Shown here one piece after another: positions 23,570-56,000 of a stretch of DNA of 64,000 bases (within the stretch, counting starts at the first letter, position 1; each line of letters starts with the position of its first letter). The notes under the pieces were generated by a model. It was not told the origin of the DNA. It saw nothing but the letters and a program-made list of their open reading frames with translations, and did no database searches. Position numbers and translations under genes: made by a program. The stretch covers positions 22,630,001 through 22,694,000 of the forward strand of contig OZ024749.1 of assembly GCA_964016885.1 (NCBI GenBank). Direction: 5' to 3'. Source of the DNA: Eledone cirrhosa. Lineage: Eukaryota.

Positions 23570-25490
23570 TGAAAAATGGAACGGGAACAAAACAGAGAGG
23601 CAGTACGAACAGAGGTTTATTAGTTTCACGGTTTTGAGATGGGGGGGGGGGTCGATGACGTTTCGGGAATAAGCTCTTCTTCAGGAGAAAAGTGTGTGGG
23701 AAGAGAGTTCCGAAGGTGTGTAGGGGAGTGGGTTTGATACATTTAGAAAAAGGGGGGGGGGGTTAACGGAGGAAAAACGGTGGAAGGGGTACAAATAAAA
23801 ATAAATATAAAAAAAATAAAAATAAAAATAAACATGAAGATAAACAAGTGGTGGAAGGGTGTGGGGCGTGTAGGGGTGGTGCCGGGCGGAGTGGGGAGAT
23901 GGAGGCGGGGTGTCCGAGCGGGGAGGGCTTAAGATGGTGTATGTGTGTATTTGTACGTGTGTGTGTATGTGAATGTGAGAGTTGGGGCAAGAACGAGGTT
24001 CCATGTTCAGGAAAAGGTGTGTGTGTGGGGTGGGGTGTAGGTCGGTGTGTGTTTGCGCTTGTAGATGGGGAGGGGTCGGGGGGGGGGGGGGGGGGGGGAG
24101 AGCAATCCGGAGGCTGAGTCTGTATATATGTGGGGGTACGCACGTGTATGTGGTGTTTATACGTATTGTGGATGTAGGTGGCGTGGTGGGAAAACATTTT
24201 TCGAGTGTATGTCCGTGGGTAAGTTCCTAAGGTAGTTCCGTAGAGGGTGTGGTGAGTGGCCGGATATTTTCCTTGTGATGGAGTTGATGGTCGGAACGAT
24301 GGCCAATGTGTGTAATCCGTGGTTGTGTTGGTCGGAAGAGGGGAGATGTGGGGTGTGCGCGCACAGGAAGTGGTCAGAGAGTCAAGGCAGGAGGAGGGTA
24401 GAGGAGAATGACATGTGGAGAGGGCTGTGTGTCTGTGTGTGCGGAGGTGCGGTGGACAGGGGTGAGGATGGGTAGGTGTGAAAGGCGGAGTGGGGAGGGG
24501 TCGTGCGGGGGGAGGGTGTGTGTATGCGTGTGTGTGTGGTGAAGGGCGATGTTAGTGTGTGTTACTATACTGGTGGTGGGGAAAAGGTTGAATGCGGGTG
24601 TGTTAGTGGTGGTCAGTGGTGGTAGGGTCTGTAGAGTGGGTGGTGTAAGTGGGTGTGGGTGGGTGTGTGTGTTCGTGTGCGTGGGGTCGGGGGGATGTTA
24701 GTGGTATTAGTTGTGGGGTGGTTGGAGTGGATGTGTGAGTGAGGGTTAGTGGTGGTAGTAGGGTGTGTGGATAGTGTGAGTGCGTGTATATATGTACCGG
24801 TGGGTGTGTGCGTTAGTATTGTTAGTTGTGGGATGTACGGTGAAAAGGAGGAGTGTGTTAGTGGTGTTAGTGGAGGATATGTGGATGGGGACAGGGCGGT
24901 CGAAGACTACATGAATAGGGGTGGGGAGTTCAATCCGGGGGGAGTGTGGGTCTGTAGGGTGAAGATGGTGCGTTGTTCGACCCTGAGGAGGGTGGCGGGT
25001 GTTCCGTGGCATTGGAGTAGGCCACAGACTGTGAGGTGGTGCGCGGAATGTCCAGGGGAGCCAAAGTGGCGGGCGATGGGGGAACTCCCGCCGAGACGAA
25101 TATCCCGGAGGTGTTCGGTGAAACGGTCCGCCAGGCGACGTCCAGTCTGTCCGACGTAGGTTGCGCTACACTCCGTGCAGCGATTCCATAGACTAAGTTG
25201 GAGGAGGTGCAGCGGAAGACGTGCCGGACAGAGAGAGAGTGGCCGTTGGGACCCTGGAAGGTGGTGGTGTTGGTGATATGGGGACAGGTGTTGCAACGAG
25301 GCCTGGAATAGGGAAGGGAACAAGGGGGGGGGGGGTGAGAGAGCGTGGGTTGGGGGGTAGGGAGCTGCGGACGAGGAGGGTGCGGAGATTGCGTGCGCGT
25401 TTGAAGGAGGGGAGATGTGGGGATGGGAAGATGTGGGAAGTGGAGGGATCGGACTTGAGGCGTCGGAACAGGCGGAGGTTGGTGCGGTGG
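23570..25490 (-). mobile_element. GC-rich Penelope-like element, 5'-truncated: GIY-YIG end, long C-rich 3' region, pLTR
   Basis: CSRPRCNTC...SNLVYGI/RCTECSATYVGQTGRRLADRFTEH...PIARHF (frameshifted, 24907-25490). Hammerhead-like CTGAAGA...ccc-GAAA-cg-TC at 23652-23690 minus. Confidence 0.9.
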
Positions 25491-25493
25491 ATA

Positions 25494-28012
25494 TCTATAT
25501 ATATAAAGGGAAGATGGACATTGTTTAGTGTACCGAACTTGCCTGCTACACCGTTCATCCAATTTTCATGAAACCTCACACATATATAAAACCCAACGCG
25601 TAGAGTGGAATAGGCTACTTGAAATTTTCGAAAAATCGATAATCGGGCCCTATGACAGAATGTTTTTCGATTCCAATGAAATTTTATGTGAATTCGAACA
25701 CAAGAACTCTTAGTTTACATCTGGCGCAATAAAAATAAATTTCATATGCCCATATAAGGACGTGCGTTATTGATTGGACGGCCAGCTGCATGTCTTCCCA
25801 GCTGTCTCAGTAAACGACCGACCATTAAAGAGTTTCTTTTCATATTCCACCTTATTCAAGTGGAAATACATATTATCCCTATCTGAAAAGGGAACCAAAT
25901 TTAATGGTGTCTTTTGTGAACCTAAAAGCTGTGAGTAAATTTTCAGTCTTAAATAATCATGCTTTTTGAAAAAAAATTTACTAAATAATACGTTGACCAA
26001 GTTGTGTTGTACACATACAATACAAGTAAACAATTTTACGTCGTACCAATGTTTTCCTTTTTTAAACAAAAGATTCTAAAAAATTACTTAATTTATAATA
26101 CAGTCTTTTGCACAGGAAGTGAGTAAGTTTTCGGGTGTTTAAACGTAAGTTCACCAGGGTTTGTGTCTTCATTATTAGCCCACCTCTAATGGCATTTTTT
26201 GTTCTGCTTACGACTAAATGTTATGAGCGTATTTGCAATTAATTGCGCACACGTGCACACCTGCATGCAGATAGACACTGACAGCCAATAAAAAATCGAT
26301 AACTTGTTTATTAAGATATCGGTCAAAAAGAGAGATTGAATGTACTTTAGAACATTTTTTTAATATATTGTTCTTTTTGGCATGATATGTCAGAAATATA
26401 GCTACTATACACTTTGTTATTTTTTGTAACTAAAAAACGGTTCCTTTTGGGTGGATACTTAACGAGAAAAATCCTAGGGTTTTGGACAAGTTTGTTTCAG
26501 GCGCTGTATAGACGCCTATTTTGTCACACCTTGGTCATGAATTCGTATTCTTTTCCAATAGATATTTTCCGCTCGATAAGGCTCACCAGGATATAAGGCG
26601 TATCATTTAAAATCAGGTCCGCGCAACGGCGTGTAAGGCCAACCAGAAAATGCTATCTGCTTTACTTTTAGTCTAGATCTATTACCTCTGTTAGAGCCGT
26701 AATTGATTACCATTGTATTATTTATACATAAGGCTCACCGGAGTATAAAGCGCAGAGCTGTTTTTCGATTAAATTTAATTATTTTAAGTGCAATTTATAG
26801 ACGGGAAAATTCGGTAAGTTATTGTAATCATATTTCCAAACCTTCCCATTCACCAGTAACCATGCTAACGAATCTGGTGTCATCTCTCTCTGTATTTAAT
26901 CACCTCTCTCTAACCTAACAGCTTCGTTACACGTCGTTATGCCCACATGGAAACGTTCAAGACTTACCTCCAAAAAAGGTACAGCTATTGCTTTGAGACA
27001 ACGAATTAGGCGTTCTCAGGTATGAGTTCATTCACAATTGATTAATCCTTTATGCAATATTCTCCCTTAATGTTAGCAAGTACTGCGTTTATCCTAACTG
27101 TCACCACTTTTAAGCAACTACAACATTCTAATCGTAGTTATATTAAATTTATTGTCTTACCTTGATTCCGTTTTGTTCATGTTAGACTTTTCTCATTTAC
27201 TATTGACACTGCCATTGGCTTAGCTAACCAGTAGAATTAATTAATTTTCTCTAGCAAACACCTGCTGAGCGCGAATCTCGACTCGCTGATAGACGTCTTT
27301 CCCGGCTGGTTGAGTCACCAACATCACGTACGACAAGGCTTGCTGATGTTCGCCTTCGTCGCCAACAAGCGCTGAAGCGCTGACGGAGGAATCACCAACA
27401 TCCCGTCAGACGAGGCTTGAGGCTGTGGCAAAGGGCAATAACCCTAGATACAATTTTGATCAACTTTTTTTCACCTATAGCAAATTTACCGGGACAGGTT
27501 TTTAGCTACTCAAATCTACTTCAGAGATCACGCATTGATGTAAAAAATCAATAAAACGGAAGCGGGACTCGACTTTGCGCAAAAAAACAAGGCAAAGTTA
27601 CACATGGGAAAACTTTTTTACAGGAACGTCCTATATTCTTGAAAACTGTCACAAAAGACTCGCCATTATGCCGCGGTTAAGATAAAGGCCCTTTTAAATT
27701 CTTCTTCTGCACATGTGAGCGCAAAAATTGTAAAAAAAAAAACCCCTGAAAGTAATCGACATTTTCACCCTGCTTTAAATTAACTGAACATTCAATATCA
27801 AGCGATTTTGACTTCCGTCAGTCGTGCAGAGAACAATTTCAACGATACACTGTGTAACTACAATTAATAAATTACACACCTGTGTCTATTAACCTATTTT
27901 TTTCCATTGAAGTTCGAAGTTTTGAACCTGTGATGCGCGGGAAGTAACTTTCACACATTCTAACAGACCAAGGGTCGACTTACACCCGGGCAACGCCGGG
28001 TACTTCTGCTAG
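25494..28012 (+). mobile_element. Non-autonomous Helitron
   Basis: 5' TC(TATATATATAAA) after A. 3' GC hairpin cccgg-gcaacg-ccggg (27985-28000) then CTAG (28009-28012) before T. Confidence 0.9.
26939..27450 (+). pseudogene. Spliced N-terminal remnant of Helitron Rep/helicase (exon 26939-27019, GT-AG intron 27020-27254, exon from 27255)
   Basis: MPTWKRSRLTSKKGTAIALRQRIRRSQ|QTPAERESRLADRRLSRLVESPTSRTTRL...ESPTSRQTRL. Phase-0 intron, and an 8-bp duplication (agcgctga) breaks the frame. Confidence 0.7.
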
Positions 28013-28086: not shown

Positions 28087-28295
28087 GTATATATATATAT
28101 ATATATATATATGTAGATAAATTGATAGTTTGTATAATTTTGTACATAGATCTGTTGAATATGCATGCCAATTCTAACATATATATCCTAGAAACGATCG
28201 TTAAATAATGAACTTTTTTTGTTTAATATAAGGAACTGTTTCATTGTTTTATTCATTATTTTTTTAATATTTTATATATATATATATATATATAT

Positions 28296-30247
28296 ACAAT
28301 AACTTCATACGCAACGAACTACACAAAAAATATAGAAAAACAAATGAAATTACGCTAGCAAATATTAACAACGAGGCATATAAAGTGTTGAAGAATCTCA
28401 AAATAGACGATAGAACCGAGCCGATTATACCCGCCACCTTCAACCTGAAGGACCATAAGGTACATTTTGACTCTAACCCTAAGATTAGACTTATATGCCC
28501 TTCTAAATCAGACATAGGGAAAATTAGCAAACATATACTTGACAGAGTAATAACTCAAGTGAAAAAGAAAATTGAAATTAAATTATGGGGCAACACTAGC
28601 GAAGCAATTCGCTGGTTTAATAATGTTAAGAATAAGAATAAATCTAAGTTTATACAATTTGACATAGACGAATACTACTCTTCCATCTCACCAACCACTT
28701 TACGTAAGGCCCTATCGTTTGCTAAGGCCAATTCCGACCTAACGGAGGACGAAATTAATATTATTCTCGAGGCTAGAAAAACCATTATTAAGTTCGATAA
28801 CTGCTACTGGGAACGTAAGGACAGACCCACAAATTTCGACATTACCATGGGTTCCAACGACTCGGCGGAGGTCACGGATCTCGTGGGAATATACATAGCC
28901 CACATATTACATAGTAAATTTAGTAATCTACAGGGGGGGGGGGGGGGGATATACAGAGATGACGGGCTCTTATTAGTTAATAACTTGAATAACCAAAATC
29001 TTGAAAGGCTACGGAAAGATATTAGAAAATCTTTTAGTGAACTGTGTCTAAAAATAACATACGAATACAATCTTAAAGTAGTAAACTTTCTGGACGTAAC
29101 TCTTAATTTAAATACCGGACAGATACGACCCTTCCACAAGGTGAATGAGAACCTTACGTATATTAACTTTAACTCTAACCACCCACTCTCCATGATCAAA
29201 TCAGTTCCCCGGAGTATTTCTCTTAGAATCTCTCGCCTATCGTCTAACTCTGATATTTTTAGTGAACACGCTGAATACTACAATAATGCATTAAGGAATG
29301 CTGACCACCGGGACACAATAGAATACATTGATAGGGATTTCCATAACACACGTAGCTCTACACGAAATCAAGGAATACGTAACCGGGGAACTAAAATACA
29401 AGCACACACACACACACAGTACTACCAGACATACTAATAATAGAAAATCACCACCAAATAAATCACGTTGTAGAAAGTATATCTGGTACAATCCTATTTT
29501 TAATGCCTCGATTAGTACAAAACTATCTCTTTCATTCTTTAAGTTAATCAACAAACACTTCCCTAGTTCCCATAAATACAGCAAAATTCTGAACTCTAAA
29601 ACTATTAGACTATCATACTCCACGGCACCAAACCTTGAAGCATACATAAAAAACTTAACTTAAGGCAATTAAACAACTCTACAAAACAAAACATTTTAGT
29701 AACAGATGGGCAGAACACAATATCTGCCTCCCAACCACTAAATGGGAGACGGGTATTACACAACCCACCTGTACCGCTATCACAACCTATCCATGGTATA
29801 CCCGCTACCCACAACAAGGAATGTAACTGCCATCTACCTGAAAGATGTCCATTGAAGAATGAATTCCTAAAGTCCAACATTGTTTACCAATGCACGGTTG
29901 AATCGAACGACCAGAAATGGTATTATATCGGATCTACCACCACCTCGTTTAAATCTCGCTGGTACCGTCATCGATTCTCAATCAAACATCCTAATCACCG
30001 TTTTGTGACCACGCTCGCCAACAAGACCTGGCAACTCCGTGAACACAACCAACAGTTCACCTTAAAATGGGATATACTTTCCAGCGCAAGTGCATATCGG
30101 AGTGGATTGAAGTACTGCAGGTTATGTAACCTTGAGCTCTTTTACATATTAAAATCCCAAAACAAACTACTTAACGATAGAATTGAACGATCATTATACT
30201 GCAACCACAAACTAAAAGCTAAATTCTCTCACTATAAAATAACTTAA
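28296..30247 (+). pseudogene. PLE RT + GIY-YIG, frameshifted (ORFs 28385-29437, 29328-29663, 29852-30247)
   Basis: Motifs as above. Frameshifts near the (CA)n at ~29403-29418 and at ~29660, and a poly-G run just before YRDD. Confidence 0.9.
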
Positions 30248-30734
30248 CATTCGAACCCGTAACTATAACACCGCTTTCTAGCTAACCACCTTCTCTTCCC
30301 CCCACACTACAAGACAATACACTGCTTATCACTATAAATGGTAACACAGTGCAATTCCTAGATTACTTCTACAAACCCAAAGTTCACTCACCACACAAAC
30401 TTCGTCTGTCCCCTCTCTACCTCTCTCTCTACATCCATTACACTCTCTCTCTCTCGCCTTTGGCCTACCCCCCTCTCAACATCTATGAACCTGCCCTCTG
30501 GGGCAATAAATAATTCCGACCTTAACTATCAACGCATCTCTCCAAAAGTAACCAGTATAATAAAACCCCTACCATAACATTTTGATTAAGATATCTACAA
30601 ACCACTCTCTCCTACTTCTCCAACCCCTGCATATCTTTCTCTCTATCTCCCTCTCCCCTACTTTTCTCTCTTCCTTTTCTACTCTATCTTCCCCAACAAC
30701 CCCACTTAAGGGTATTTACATTGTACATTTTACC

Positions 30735-30858
30735 ATTCTGCTCTGAGGAAACAGTGGTCACAGCATTGGATATTTGAGTTCTGCAAGTACTTGTGAATTT
30801 GCACATAGCATAACTAGGCTGTAGTACCACCGTGGAAAAACTTGTAAGCACACAGAAT
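30735..30858 (+). ncRNA. Hammerhead ribozyme with ~85-nt stem II in PLE pLTR
   Basis: tgct-CTGAGGA-aacagtggtcacagc...gctgtagtaccaccgtg-GAAA-aacttg-TA-agca. Stem I extends via attctg/cagaat. Confidence 0.68.
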
Positions 30859-31043
30859 AAATTACCTTTTTATGATGTTTACCTGTTATTATTCATTCTT
30901 TATTATACACTCCGGAATACAGAAGGATCGGGAACTAAGTTTCTTCAACAATTCTTCCATAACTCGTAGAGTAACCTCTTACCGTACGTCAACCATATCC
31001 AGTGTAGTAATTAACCATTACTACATCTTGGATAATCCTATAC

Positions 31044-31100
<57 letters not shown>

Positions 31101-31103
<3 letters not shown>

Positions 31104-31935
31104 ACGATAAATTAACGGAGGCATAGGCCGTCGTTATTCCCTGTAAATAATGTGCTCAAAGGGGAAGAGATCCTGAGCCCTTTAAAATATAATATGTTGA
31201 GAAGGTAACACACCAGAGAGAGATATATAGTGTGCCATCAATAATACAGGGAAAAAAACCACCAGTGTATGGAATCTATAACCTATGAAAGGCAGACTAT
31301 AGACACGATAATTAAAAATATAAATTAAAGCGTAAATAAATACCTTTATAACTATATAACACACGTACACATCCAAAGATATGTTTCACCAAAAAATTTG
31401 TTGAAAGAAATGGTCTAGTCTCGGTTCATCAGCGTGTGTAAGGCCATACATTTCAGACAACACTAAGAGAATTTTACAATTGACTGTCTAGCTACACGTG
31501 GGAGAGAGAAGTCACAGCGTGTTTAAGGGCAGTGAACCAGTGGCCTCTGAGAGACGAACTGCTAGAAGGGGCAGCCCAAAGCCACTCAGAGAAGTGTGCT
31601 CAACCAAACAGAGTTAGGAAAAACTGTTATTAGGAGCGAAATATCACGATAAATTAACGGAGGCATAGGCCGTCGTTATTCCCTGTAAATAATGTGCTCA
31701 AAGGGGAAGAGATTCTGAGCCCTTTAAAATATAATATGTTGAGAAGGTAACACACCAGAGAGAGATATATAGTGTGCCATCAATAATACAGGGAAAAAAC
31801 CATCAGTGTATGGAATCTATAACCTATGAAAGGCAGACTATAGACACGATAATTAAAAATATAAATTAAAGCGTAAATAAATACCTTTATAACTATATAA
31901 CACACGTACAAATCCAAAGATATGTTTCGCCAAAA
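31101..31935 (-). mobile_element. Retrozyme-like ORF-less element, 542-bp monomer x ~1.5
   Basis: atcacgataaattaacggagg at 31101 and 31643, (TA)n flanks, intact hammerhead. Confidence 0.85.
31359..31439 (-). ncRNA. Type I hammerhead ribozyme with full stem III
   Basis: Minus strand: acacacg-CTGATGA-acc...ggt-GAAA-catatc-tttg-gatgtg-TA-cgtgtgt. Confidence 0.88.
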
Positions 31936-31959
31936 TATATATATATGTATGTATGTATG

Positions 31960-31999
<40 letters not shown>

Positions 32000-32685
32000 T
32001 ATATATATATTACTTACATACATACACTCACACATACGCACTCAGACACAACCCCCCCCCCACACACACACACACCCAACACACATATATATATATATAT
32101 ATATATTTATACATATATGCTATAGTTAATATCGATTATTTTTCCAAATGTTTAGTCGTTGATGTGAATGTCATTTGTCACGTCTCCATACACCTGTTCA
32201 GAAATTTCTTTTGTAATTCTCTCACTAAGTAATGAACAGGTGAGTAGGCAATAGAATTACATACGAATATATTTGTTTCCGATATATTTCTATGATCATA
32301 TTGTTCATAATTTTATCGTTAATTAATGGTTTGTTTCGATGCTGTTGTTTTGTTAATCCATGTCTATCTGACATAGTAACGGTAGAATGATGAACCATTG
32401 AGATGAGGTAAGAACGAATTATTGATAATTTTGAGAATTGTAAAGGTGCGGTTGTTCTGATTCATAGTGTTTCTTGGTCACTTTAAATCTGAAGGGTACC
32501 ATCTCTCTTCAGGTTTCAATACCTACTGTCCCTGTTTTGTGTCCTTGATTTGATACATTGGTGCATTGGTCATTTTAAATCTGAAGGATACCATCTCTTT
32601 CTAGGTTTCATTACCCACTGTCCTCGTTCTTTGTGTATTGTACTTTATGTTCCAGCTCTAGTGCTAGTTTGGTATAAATTCTATA

Positions 32686-40246: not shown

Positions 40247-40823
40247 CAGTCGTTCCCAATCTTTTGTGCATCATGCCCCTCCTCAACGTCTAAAAAAATT
40301 GCTATCTCCCGCTTTGACATGAAAACAGCAATGATCAGCTGCAAAGTGTAAACAAATTGGTGTATAAGTGATGCCAAATGCACAATAACTATGGAGCAGG
40401 CAAGAGAGGAGTTTCTGACAGTAATGCCTATCAAAGTTGCCTTGGTGCAGGTGGTGCCAAATGCACAATAATTATGGAGGAGATGAGACAGGAGTTTCCG
40501 ACCGTAATATGTACCAAGGTTGCTTTTGTGTAGGTGGTGCCAGATGTACAATAACATATGGAGGAGGTGGGACAGGAGTATCTGATTTCTGACAGTAATA
40601 TGTACCAAATTTGCCTTGGTGTAGGTGGTGCCAGATACACAATAACATATGGAGGAGGTGAGATAGGAGTTTATGACAGTAATGTGTACCACAGTTGCCT
40701 TGTTGCAAAAACAATAAACTAAAACCTGAGTTTTGCTCTCATTAACATCATTTACAAATCTCCCCACTTAAAATATTCAATTTTGACTCCTCTGGGATGT
40801 GCGCCCCACGTTGGGAATCACTA
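40247..40823. mobile_element. hAT (Charlie/Buster-like) MITE with internal ~80-bp tandem repeats
   Basis: TIRs cagtcgttcccaa / ttgggaatcacta. 8-bp TSD gtctacag (40239-40246) / gtctagag (40824-40831). Confidence 0.8.
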
Positions 40824-54896: not shown

Positions 54897-56000
54897 CCGA
54901 CTAACATGCTGTTCCGGACTATAAGCTAACATGTTGTTCCGGACTATAAACTAACATGCTGTTCCGGACTATAAGCTAACATGCTGTACATACTATAAAC
55001 TAACATGTTGTTCTGGACTATAAGATACAATGCTGTTCCGGACTATAAGCTAACATGCTGTTCCGGACTATAAGCTAACATGCTGTTCCGGACTATAAGC
55101 TAACATGTTATTCAGGACTATAAGCTAACATGCTGTTCCGGACTATAAGCTAACATGTTATTCAGGACTATAAGCTAACATGCTGTTCCGGACTATAAGC
55201 TAGCATGCTGTTCCGAACTATAAGCTAGCATGATGTTCCGGACTATAAGCTAGCATGCTGTTCCGGACTATAATTTAACGTTGTTCCGGACTCTAAGCTA
55301 ACATGCTGTTCCGGACTATAAGCTAAATGCTGTTCCGGACTATAAGCTAACATGCTGTACTGGACTATAAGCTAACATGTTGTTCCGGACTATAAGCTAA
55401 CATGCTGTTCCGGACTATAAGCTAACATGCTGTACCGGATTATAAGCTAACATGTTGTTCCGGACTATAAGCTAACATGTTGTTCCGGACTATAAGCTAA
55501 CATGCTGTTCCGGACTATAAGCTAACATGCTGTACCGGATTATAAGCTAACATGTTGTTCCGGACTATAAGCTAACATGCTGTTCCGGACTATAAGCTAA
55601 ATGCTGTTCCGGACTATAAGCTAACATGCTGTACTGGACTATAAGCTAACATGTTGTTCCGGACTATAAGCTAACATGTTGTTCCGGACTATAAGCTAAC
55701 ATGCTGTACCGGACTATAAGCTAACATGTTGTTCCGGACTATAAGCTAACATGTTGTTCCGGACTATAAGCCAACATGCTGTTCCGGACTATAATCAAAC
55801 ATGCTGTTCCGGACTATAATCTAACATGCTGTTCCGGACTATAATCTAACATGCTGTTCCGGACTATAAGCTAACATGCTGTTCCGGTCTATAAGCTAAC
55901 ATGTTGTTCCGGACTATAAGCTAGCATGCTGTTCCGGACTATAAGTTAGCATGTTATTCCGGACTATAAGCTAGCATACTGTTCCGGACTATAAGCTAGC
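54897..56000. repeat. 25-bp minisatellite (gctaacatgctgttccggactataa), ~44 copies
   Basis: Contiguous units with point variants and no spacers. It starts right after a SINE A head (54810-54900). Confidence 0.97.

Follow-up and report, generated by a model that had tools for sequence, protein, structure and literature searches.

A dispersed non-coding 541-nt hammerhead repeat with two Penelope-type 3' ends in the genome of Eledone cirrhosa

A 64,000-nt stretch of contig OZ024749.1 of Eledone cirrhosa (the window) carries, at 31101..31935 on the minus strand, an insert that on balance is probably a 5'-truncated 1.55-unit copy of a dispersed, non-coding 541-nt hammerhead ribozyme family, mobilised by a Penelope-like reverse transcriptase (RT) and endonuclease acting in trans and copied round a unit-length RNA circle. 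The non-coding 541-base repeat sits at more than a thousand places in the genome. Its most informative feature is a pair of fixed Penelope-type 3' ends that combine one of each in head-to-head insertions.

Read on the minus strand, the insert begins with 29 nt of a hammerhead, continues through a 541-nt cut-to-cut unit that includes a complete type I hammerhead, and runs for 266 nt more, giving a total of about 836 nt (1.55 units) bounded by (TA)n tracts. The 5'-truncated partial hammerhead (31907..31935, unit positions about 513-541, cut 31907/31906) retains half of stem II, GAAA, stem III and GUA, lacks the 5' strand of stem I and CUGAUGA, and marks at 31935 the 5' truncation point of the insert. 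The complete unit (31366..31906) is non-coding, has 39% GC, and contains internal sites for a short ('A') and a long ('B') terminus at 31729 and 31641, respectively. It is followed by a last partial lap (31099..31365, unit positions 1-266) which is 98.9% identical to the full unit, reads through the A terminus CATATTATAT at 31187 without stopping there, and finishes at the B terminus, GTGATAT. The last ATAT of the element (31099-31102) is common to the (TA)n target tract (31047..31102), and the 5' junction lies in a (TA)n/(TATG)n tract (31935..32010); a TSD is unreadable in these tracts. The repeat copies of the insert differ at five positions, one of which is an extra A in the downstream repeat, and because of this extra A the repeat spacing is 542 nt. 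The original prediction of a 542-nt monomer was thus right about the tandem unit and wrong about its length, which is 541 nt from cut to cut; likewise, the insert does end in (TA)n, at 31099-31102, 266 nt beyond the second hammerhead at which the end had been placed. Its starting point inside a hammerhead at 31935, its minus-strand orientation and its lack of an ORF were all borne out: stop-free frames in the circularised unit do not exceed 49 codons, and ORFs that begin with ATG reach 26 codons at most. The window also contains tandem arrays at 54901-55998 and 40368-40707 (25-bp x 44 and 83/91-bp).

In the complete hammerhead (31359..31439, predicted cut 31366/31365), a 7-bp stem I of ACACACG/CGUGUGU (31439-31433/31365-31359) is followed by CUGAUGA (31432-31426). 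Stem II (31425-31419/31394-31388) has three Watson-Crick pairs, or up to seven pairs when G-U pairs are included, and a 24-nt loop. GAAA (31387-31384) leads into stem III, CAUAUC/GAUGUG (31383-31378/31373-31368), which has 6 bp including one U-G pair and is followed by the UA (31367-31366) of the GUA site. The intact ribozyme predicted at the outset, with its 7-bp stem I, 6-bp stem III and GUA, is therefore present in the insert, but it does not represent the family, as the 6-bp stem III needs a substitution found in few copies and the majority have a U-U mismatch there. A hammerhead descriptor run over both strands of the 64 kb gave one strong match and one weak one, with none on the opposite strand of the insert, and Rfam gave no matches at gathering thresholds. 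In a side observation, a subfamily (L035, L036, L038, L039, L049, L067, L076, L102 and others) was seen to carry a 14-nt duplication inside stem III, which can still close. Further hammerhead-like families, with CUGAUGA...GAAA and a stem I of 7-8 bp, were seen in the flanks of L008, L056, L057, L070, L104, L111 and others.

The 541-nt unit is predicted to fold better than shuffled sequences, with z scores of -3.99 when linear and -3.92 as a circle, as compared to -2.25 for the antisense circle. In the insert, owing to competition between stem II and a hairpin in another register, the catalytic fold is predicted to lie 2.0 kcal/mol above the MFE, and the predicted pairing probability of stem II is only 0.06-0.13. 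In the common variants the catalytic fold lies 2.6-3.3 kcal/mol above the MFE. Compensatory change was found in none of 16 pairs of the hammerhead alignment, in which stem III of a sister family described below is out of register. Over unit positions 1-266, two-sided changes were found in 4 of 55 predicted pairs, and this covariation is weak because all four reflect a single split between the two families. By the original prediction the RNA should cleave as a monomer; for comparison, only one of nine predicted Xenopus dimers was reported to cleave (Li, Clavereau and Pollet 2026, 10.64898/2026.07.22.740005).

Searching the 3.0-Gb Eledone genome at the DNA level gave 2,935 candidates, of which the best 40 were scored. 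The exact family ribozyme pattern has 563 genomic matches, as compared to none for the reversed control, and the exact 3' junction patterns with (TA)n have 1,138 and 779 matches (1,917 in all), with none for the controls. The 104 non-redundant loci analysed comprise 22 from the genome search, which are biased to long, insert-like copies, and 82 chromosome-1 ribozyme matches, which are biased to ribozyme-containing copies; 12 overlapping or duplicate loci had been dropped. As had been anticipated for a retrozyme, the copies, which lie at unlinked loci, are circular permutations and multimers whose length varies between tens of nucleotides and 4.4 units, and what lies 5' of every unit position is the preceding unit position. 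Most copies are shorter than two units: of the 127 canonical arms in the chromosome-1 set (81 loci without L078), 92 span the cut site, 48 are longer than one unit, and a single arm is longer than two. The 'active' criterion of Li et al. is at least two complete hammerheads in tandem. The window insert has one complete and one partial hammerhead; with one complete ribozyme only, it is probably unable to release unit-length RNA, and is probably an inert derivative and no source of circles. Two complete hammerheads are found elsewhere, in loci such as L003, L005, L018 and L027, so that the family does include copies that are 'active' in this sense.

The 3' ends of the family are fixed at one of two positions, 178 (A) or 266 (B) nt past the cut, in 42 of 49 unpaired arms. 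The two ends are 88 nt apart and each terminates in ATAT. The 104 loci contain 69 head-to-head pairs, 20 of which were set aside because at least one arm, through interruption or rearrangement, has a different end point. The remaining 49 comprise 48 A+B pairs and one A+A pair; without L078, which has a junction in common with L076, the one-of-each rule holds in 47 of 48 (p 1.7e-13 against one half). A further 40 loci formed a second set, picked by their ends alone; it gave 21 A+B pairs, three B+B pairs (one of them fetched because it looked like an exception), no A+A pairs, and six pairs that were unscorable. Exceptions over both sets thus amount to three long+long and one short+short.

The template of these insertions was examined by comparing laps and arms within loci at diagnostic sites, after four loci (one duplicate, three diverged) had been dropped. 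At 27 subfamily-diagnostic sites, mismatches were found in 58 of 1,429 comparisons between laps (4.1%), in 49 of 769 between arms (6.4%), and in 39% between loci. Twenty-three rare variants occur in all copies of the locus concerned. With L094 excluded as two insertions, rare variants are shared at 38 of 34,160 position pairs across laps (pairs that are non-independent in long arrays) and at 9 of 7,230 between arms at the same linear position, as compared to about 0.3 and 0.07 expected by chance (Fisher p 0.70 between the two rates); with the strictest threshold applied, none of 5,255 cross-lap comparisons between arms showed sharing. Of 168 crossings of the cut-site junction, 143 are exact and nearly all of the others have single changes. 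Linkage across the junction is as strong as within a lap and, a few odd arrays aside, there is no re-assortment of monomers at the cut site. No A-to-G editing bias was found among the shared variants (two A>G, six T>C). Taken together, the sharing between laps and arms, the exact junctions and the intact linkage form the pattern expected of one unit-length molecule read repeatedly, and we judge from these variants that such a template was favoured, with a circle as its probable form.

An unlikely alternative is that the same two-start PLE machinery copied a linear transcript which had read through a tandem source locus and had not been cleaved, the hammerhead being dispensable and the units having been homogenised by duplication or conversion at the DNA level. 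The biochemistry of the Penelope-like element PAc speaks for this: in vitro, as described in PMC11167929, uncleaved RNA is inserted and hammerhead mutants have no effect on insertion. Both observations, and the lack of a strand difference in the start site of PAc, count against a circle with two starts. In the Eledone family, moreover, 5' ends fall at variable points with no excess at the cut (4 of 157 versus 3.2 expected), only one of the 127 chromosome-1 arms exceeds two units, and the common hammerhead variants fold weakly. The unit patterns of the L003 and L018 arrays are those of duplication after insertion, and DNA-level homogenisation therefore adds to the sharing signal. Against a read-through template stands the absence of variants inherited from particular units of a source: in 2,723 opportunities, no rare variant was present in both arms yet missing from another lap, and the three such cases among common alleles are noisy sites. 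Cross-lap sharing is also seen from one arm to the other and within arms that fall short of two units (L064, L023, L091), and the hammerhead core is identical between families that are only 77% alike, despite divergence of loop II. A linear cycle that truncates at the 5' end should, furthermore, shorten arrays over time. A unit-length circle read repeatedly is thus preferred to a linear read-through transcript.

It is improbable that the template was a self-cleaved linear monomer, with the RT jumping from its 5' end to the 3' end of the same or another molecule. A few arrays (L029, L083, L072) do have a last lap unlike the previous one at common alleles, lap pairs of the same arm with three or more such mismatches numbering 5 of 108, and two loci at which the repeat is fused to a truncated PLE ORF would be compatible with a jumping RT. 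Repeated jumping is, however, at odds with the precision of the junctions (143 of 168 exact), with linkage that is as strong across the junction as within a lap, and with the lack of a pile-up of 5' ends at the cut.

The parentage of the repeat was considered with reference to the PLEs of the same genome. A neighbouring PLE (28268..31046, plus strand), with an RT-like ORF containing a frameshift, a GIY-YIG domain (PF01541, E 1.1e-4) and a 3' region of about 800 nt, meets the insert tail-to-tail in the same TA tract and has no sequence in common with it. Its linker and the absence of CCHH suggest that it is Hydra-like in the scheme of PMC8557442, an assignment made without a tree. The family of this element has 3' ends at 30907 and 31046, which occur one-of-each in four of four inverted copies (19 loci), and no hammerhead was found in its 3' region. 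As it lies on the opposite strand and has these ends of its own, the neighbouring PLE was rejected as the parent of the retrozyme. The element is young, with 2,827 genome candidates for its 3' end. A fragment of another PLE, with a Cys-rich linker and a GIY-YIG-like motif, lies at 24907-25714 of the window on the minus strand and has no Pfam match at E 0.01.

A very abundant and young Neptune-like PLE (L157:1053-3833 on the minus strand; L117-L146) has a 927-aa frame with a weak RVT_1 match and a CX4CXXC linker, a minimal hammerhead, and two ends that are joined to TA and separated by 60 nt, which pair short with long in nine of nine scorable cases (13 regions fetched). Autonomous PLEs of this genome, in this family and in that of the neighbouring element, thus follow the one-of-each rule as well. 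Two 3' ends are also found in the PLE family of L234. A search of these three TA-targeting families (Neptune-like, neighbouring, L234) for sequence common to the 541-nt unit found none, the likeness being one of architecture only. A TA-targeted element whose final 9 nt are similar was likewise rejected as a partner, being short and having yielded neither a hammerhead nor a PLE-like ORF. A TA-targeted hairpin element of about 200 nt (L188-L198) has 1,930 candidates that are 98% identical, with no hammerhead or PLE-like ORF detected.

That the repeat is merely the pseudo-LTR or 3' UTR of an autonomous PLE known from truncated copies is highly improbable, although its ends, tail and target are of PLE type. 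An ORF combining RT and GIY-YIG, by which an autonomous PLE is recognised, is absent from the unit; every unit position is preceded by the previous unit position, and 33 single-arm loci yielded no 5' flank in common. Among the 20 unpaired arms of the second set there were two short shared matches, and three arms had a sense PLE ORF upstream, which in L233 is separated from the repeat by a TA tract. In two single chimeras, L234 and L238, a truncated PLE ORF in sense orientation runs into the 5' end of the repeat and does not resume downstream. These chimeras speak for a PLE parent; they may be RT template switches, and as such could point to partner enzymes. In its other copies the PLE family of L234 has its own 3' UTR, which is unrelated to the 541-nt unit. 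The segment 31394-31642, which might have belonged to a longer PLE 3' UTR, proved to belong to the tandem unit like any other part of it, and in none of the loci examined does it serve a PLE family as its 3' UTR. Since only the best genome-search candidates were scored, a rare full-length parent could have escaped.

A sister retrozyme family (L163:1463-2252; L162-L186; 585 candidates) also bears on this question. Its unit of about 528 nt is colinear with the 541-nt unit and 77% identical to it, and its ends, at 168 and 257, are homologous to A and B and occur one-of-each in six of six scorable pairs. The hammerhead core, which is invariant across both families, and stem I have been kept while loop II has diverged. 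No ORF was found in 25 loci of the sister family, from which we infer that the lineage has long been non-coding.

It is extremely unlikely that the inverted arms arose by fold-back or self-priming on an antisense template rather than by two primed reverse transcriptions: such a route has been proposed for PLEs (Arkhipova et al. 2013; PMC3846280), and 8 of 48 head-to-head junctions come within 7 nt of symmetry (null 1.9, p 0.0004), but the other 40 are asymmetric, the longer arm carries either end (24 versus 23), in 9 of 47 pairs each arm has sequence that the other lacks, and fold-back leaves unexplained why the partner end is the other terminus. The excess of symmetric junctions indicates that hairpin-guided joining contributes; collision of laps was considered as a further reading of them, and local hairpin joining fits them as well.

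From the unit structure, targets, two ends, pairing and template homogeneity observed in the loci, a cycle can be proposed in which the few loci with two complete hammerheads would be transcribed, and the transcript would cleave itself and be ligated to a 541-nt circle, as in retrozyme biology generally. A dimer of a TA-targeting PLE protein would then capture the RNA and cut both strands of a (TA)n tract, by analogy with PAc, for which cutting and extension of both target strands were found, a dimer is predicted, and the PLE tail is the stretch between two internal RT starts (PMC11167929). The subunits would start reverse transcription internally on a single RNA, one priming at 266 from one strand and its partner at 178 from the opposite strand, with help from ATAT microhomology. 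Each cDNA would cross the intact ligated cut site, sometimes for more than one lap, and stop at a variable point before the two were joined head to head; where the second cDNA was very short or absent, a single-armed copy would result. The window insert would accordingly be a B-primed cDNA of 1.55 laps that stopped inside the ribozyme, a second arm not being visible. In its full form, the proposal that a long-lived, ORF-less ribozyme circle parasitises PLE enzymes, with a dimer that primes two cDNAs at two sites of the circle, each able to lap, is put forward tentatively, at somewhat short of even chances. If true, the genome records rolling-circle, double-primed retrotransposition, and the 541-nt circle would be a ready substrate on which to reconstitute the unsolved second-strand step of PLE mobility.

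Copying of more than one unit from a circular template was proposed in 2014 (PMC4209133), as was mobilisation of animal retrozymes by PLEs via circular RNA (PMC4209133, PMC7229834), and a 2026 preprint supports the link between retrozymes and PLEs by co-occurrence and phylogeny (10.64898/2026.07.22.740005). To these proposals the Eledone family adds countable genomic evidence, both on whether PLEs mobilise retrozymes via circles and on how the inverted arms of PLEs, with their one-sided tail, arise: a PLE two-start signature is found without any ORF, the ends pair one-of-each almost always, and laps share rare variants. It also provides in vitro work with exact start sites (178 and 266), with (TA)n as the target and with a template of small size. 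In the literature searched, the 541-nt family is undescribed and no one-of-each count for retrozymes was found, and supplements may hold such data.

The original identification of the insert as a retrozyme is supported by the ORF-less head-to-tail unit without LTR architecture, the type I hammerhead and the dispersed family, and the 541-nt repeat is a new family of the known metazoan retrozymes, itself ordinary in kind. A plant LTR retrozyme or viroid-like replicon, which would call for type III hammerheads in LTRs with PBS/PPT or for ribozymes of both polarities, was ruled out by the type I topology and the lack of an opposite-strand hammerhead. Judged by features legible in the genome, the family would qualify under the testable criteria both as a metazoan non-LTR retrozyme and as a non-autonomous PLE. 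With the former, as described in PMC7229834 and by Li et al. (10.64898/2026.07.22.740005), it has in common a non-coding tandem unit with one type I hammerhead and low GC, dispersed monomers and short multimers, and PLEs alongside. Its size was at first thought to exceed that of metazoan monomers; this was mistaken, as 541 falls within the published range of 51-972 bp (mean 650 bp in ray-finned fish; Li et al. 2026). Fixed internal 3' ends, two-armed insertions and (TA)n targeting set it apart from the retrozyme accounts of these two papers, as far as consulted, and its stem III has 5-6 bp where 1-2 bp is typical of metazoan type I motifs. For the retrozymes of coral, mussel and axolotl both cleavage and circles were demonstrated (PMC7229834), and for the 541-nt family they would be predicted.

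With PLEs, namely Poseidon PAc (PMC11167929), Neptune, Hydra and Naiad (PMC8557442) and Adineta Penelope (PMC3846280), the family shares partial tandems, an inverted 5'-truncated arm, insertion into (TA)n or AT-rich sequence, and a hammerhead that lies upstream of two internal 3' ends, just one of which bears a 'tail'. PMC3846280 and PMC8557442 describe this tail as an option on one of the inverted pLTRs. It differs from them in having no ORF, a tail of 88 nt as compared to 30-40 nt, and a canonical long-stem hammerhead in place of the minimal PLE motif; PLE clades with an N-terminal EN are reported, in the relevant part of PMC8557442, to be without canonical hammerheads. Both ends of the 541-nt family also show ATAT microhomology to the target, whereas the PAc starts are non-homologous (PMC11167929). 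A further parallel is offered by the non-autonomous Chlamys PLEs such as MRC1, which likewise form pLTRs and multicopy head-to-tail insertions (PMC8557442); these resemble their autonomous partner at the 3' end, a likeness that the 541-nt family does not have to any of the three PLE families compared.
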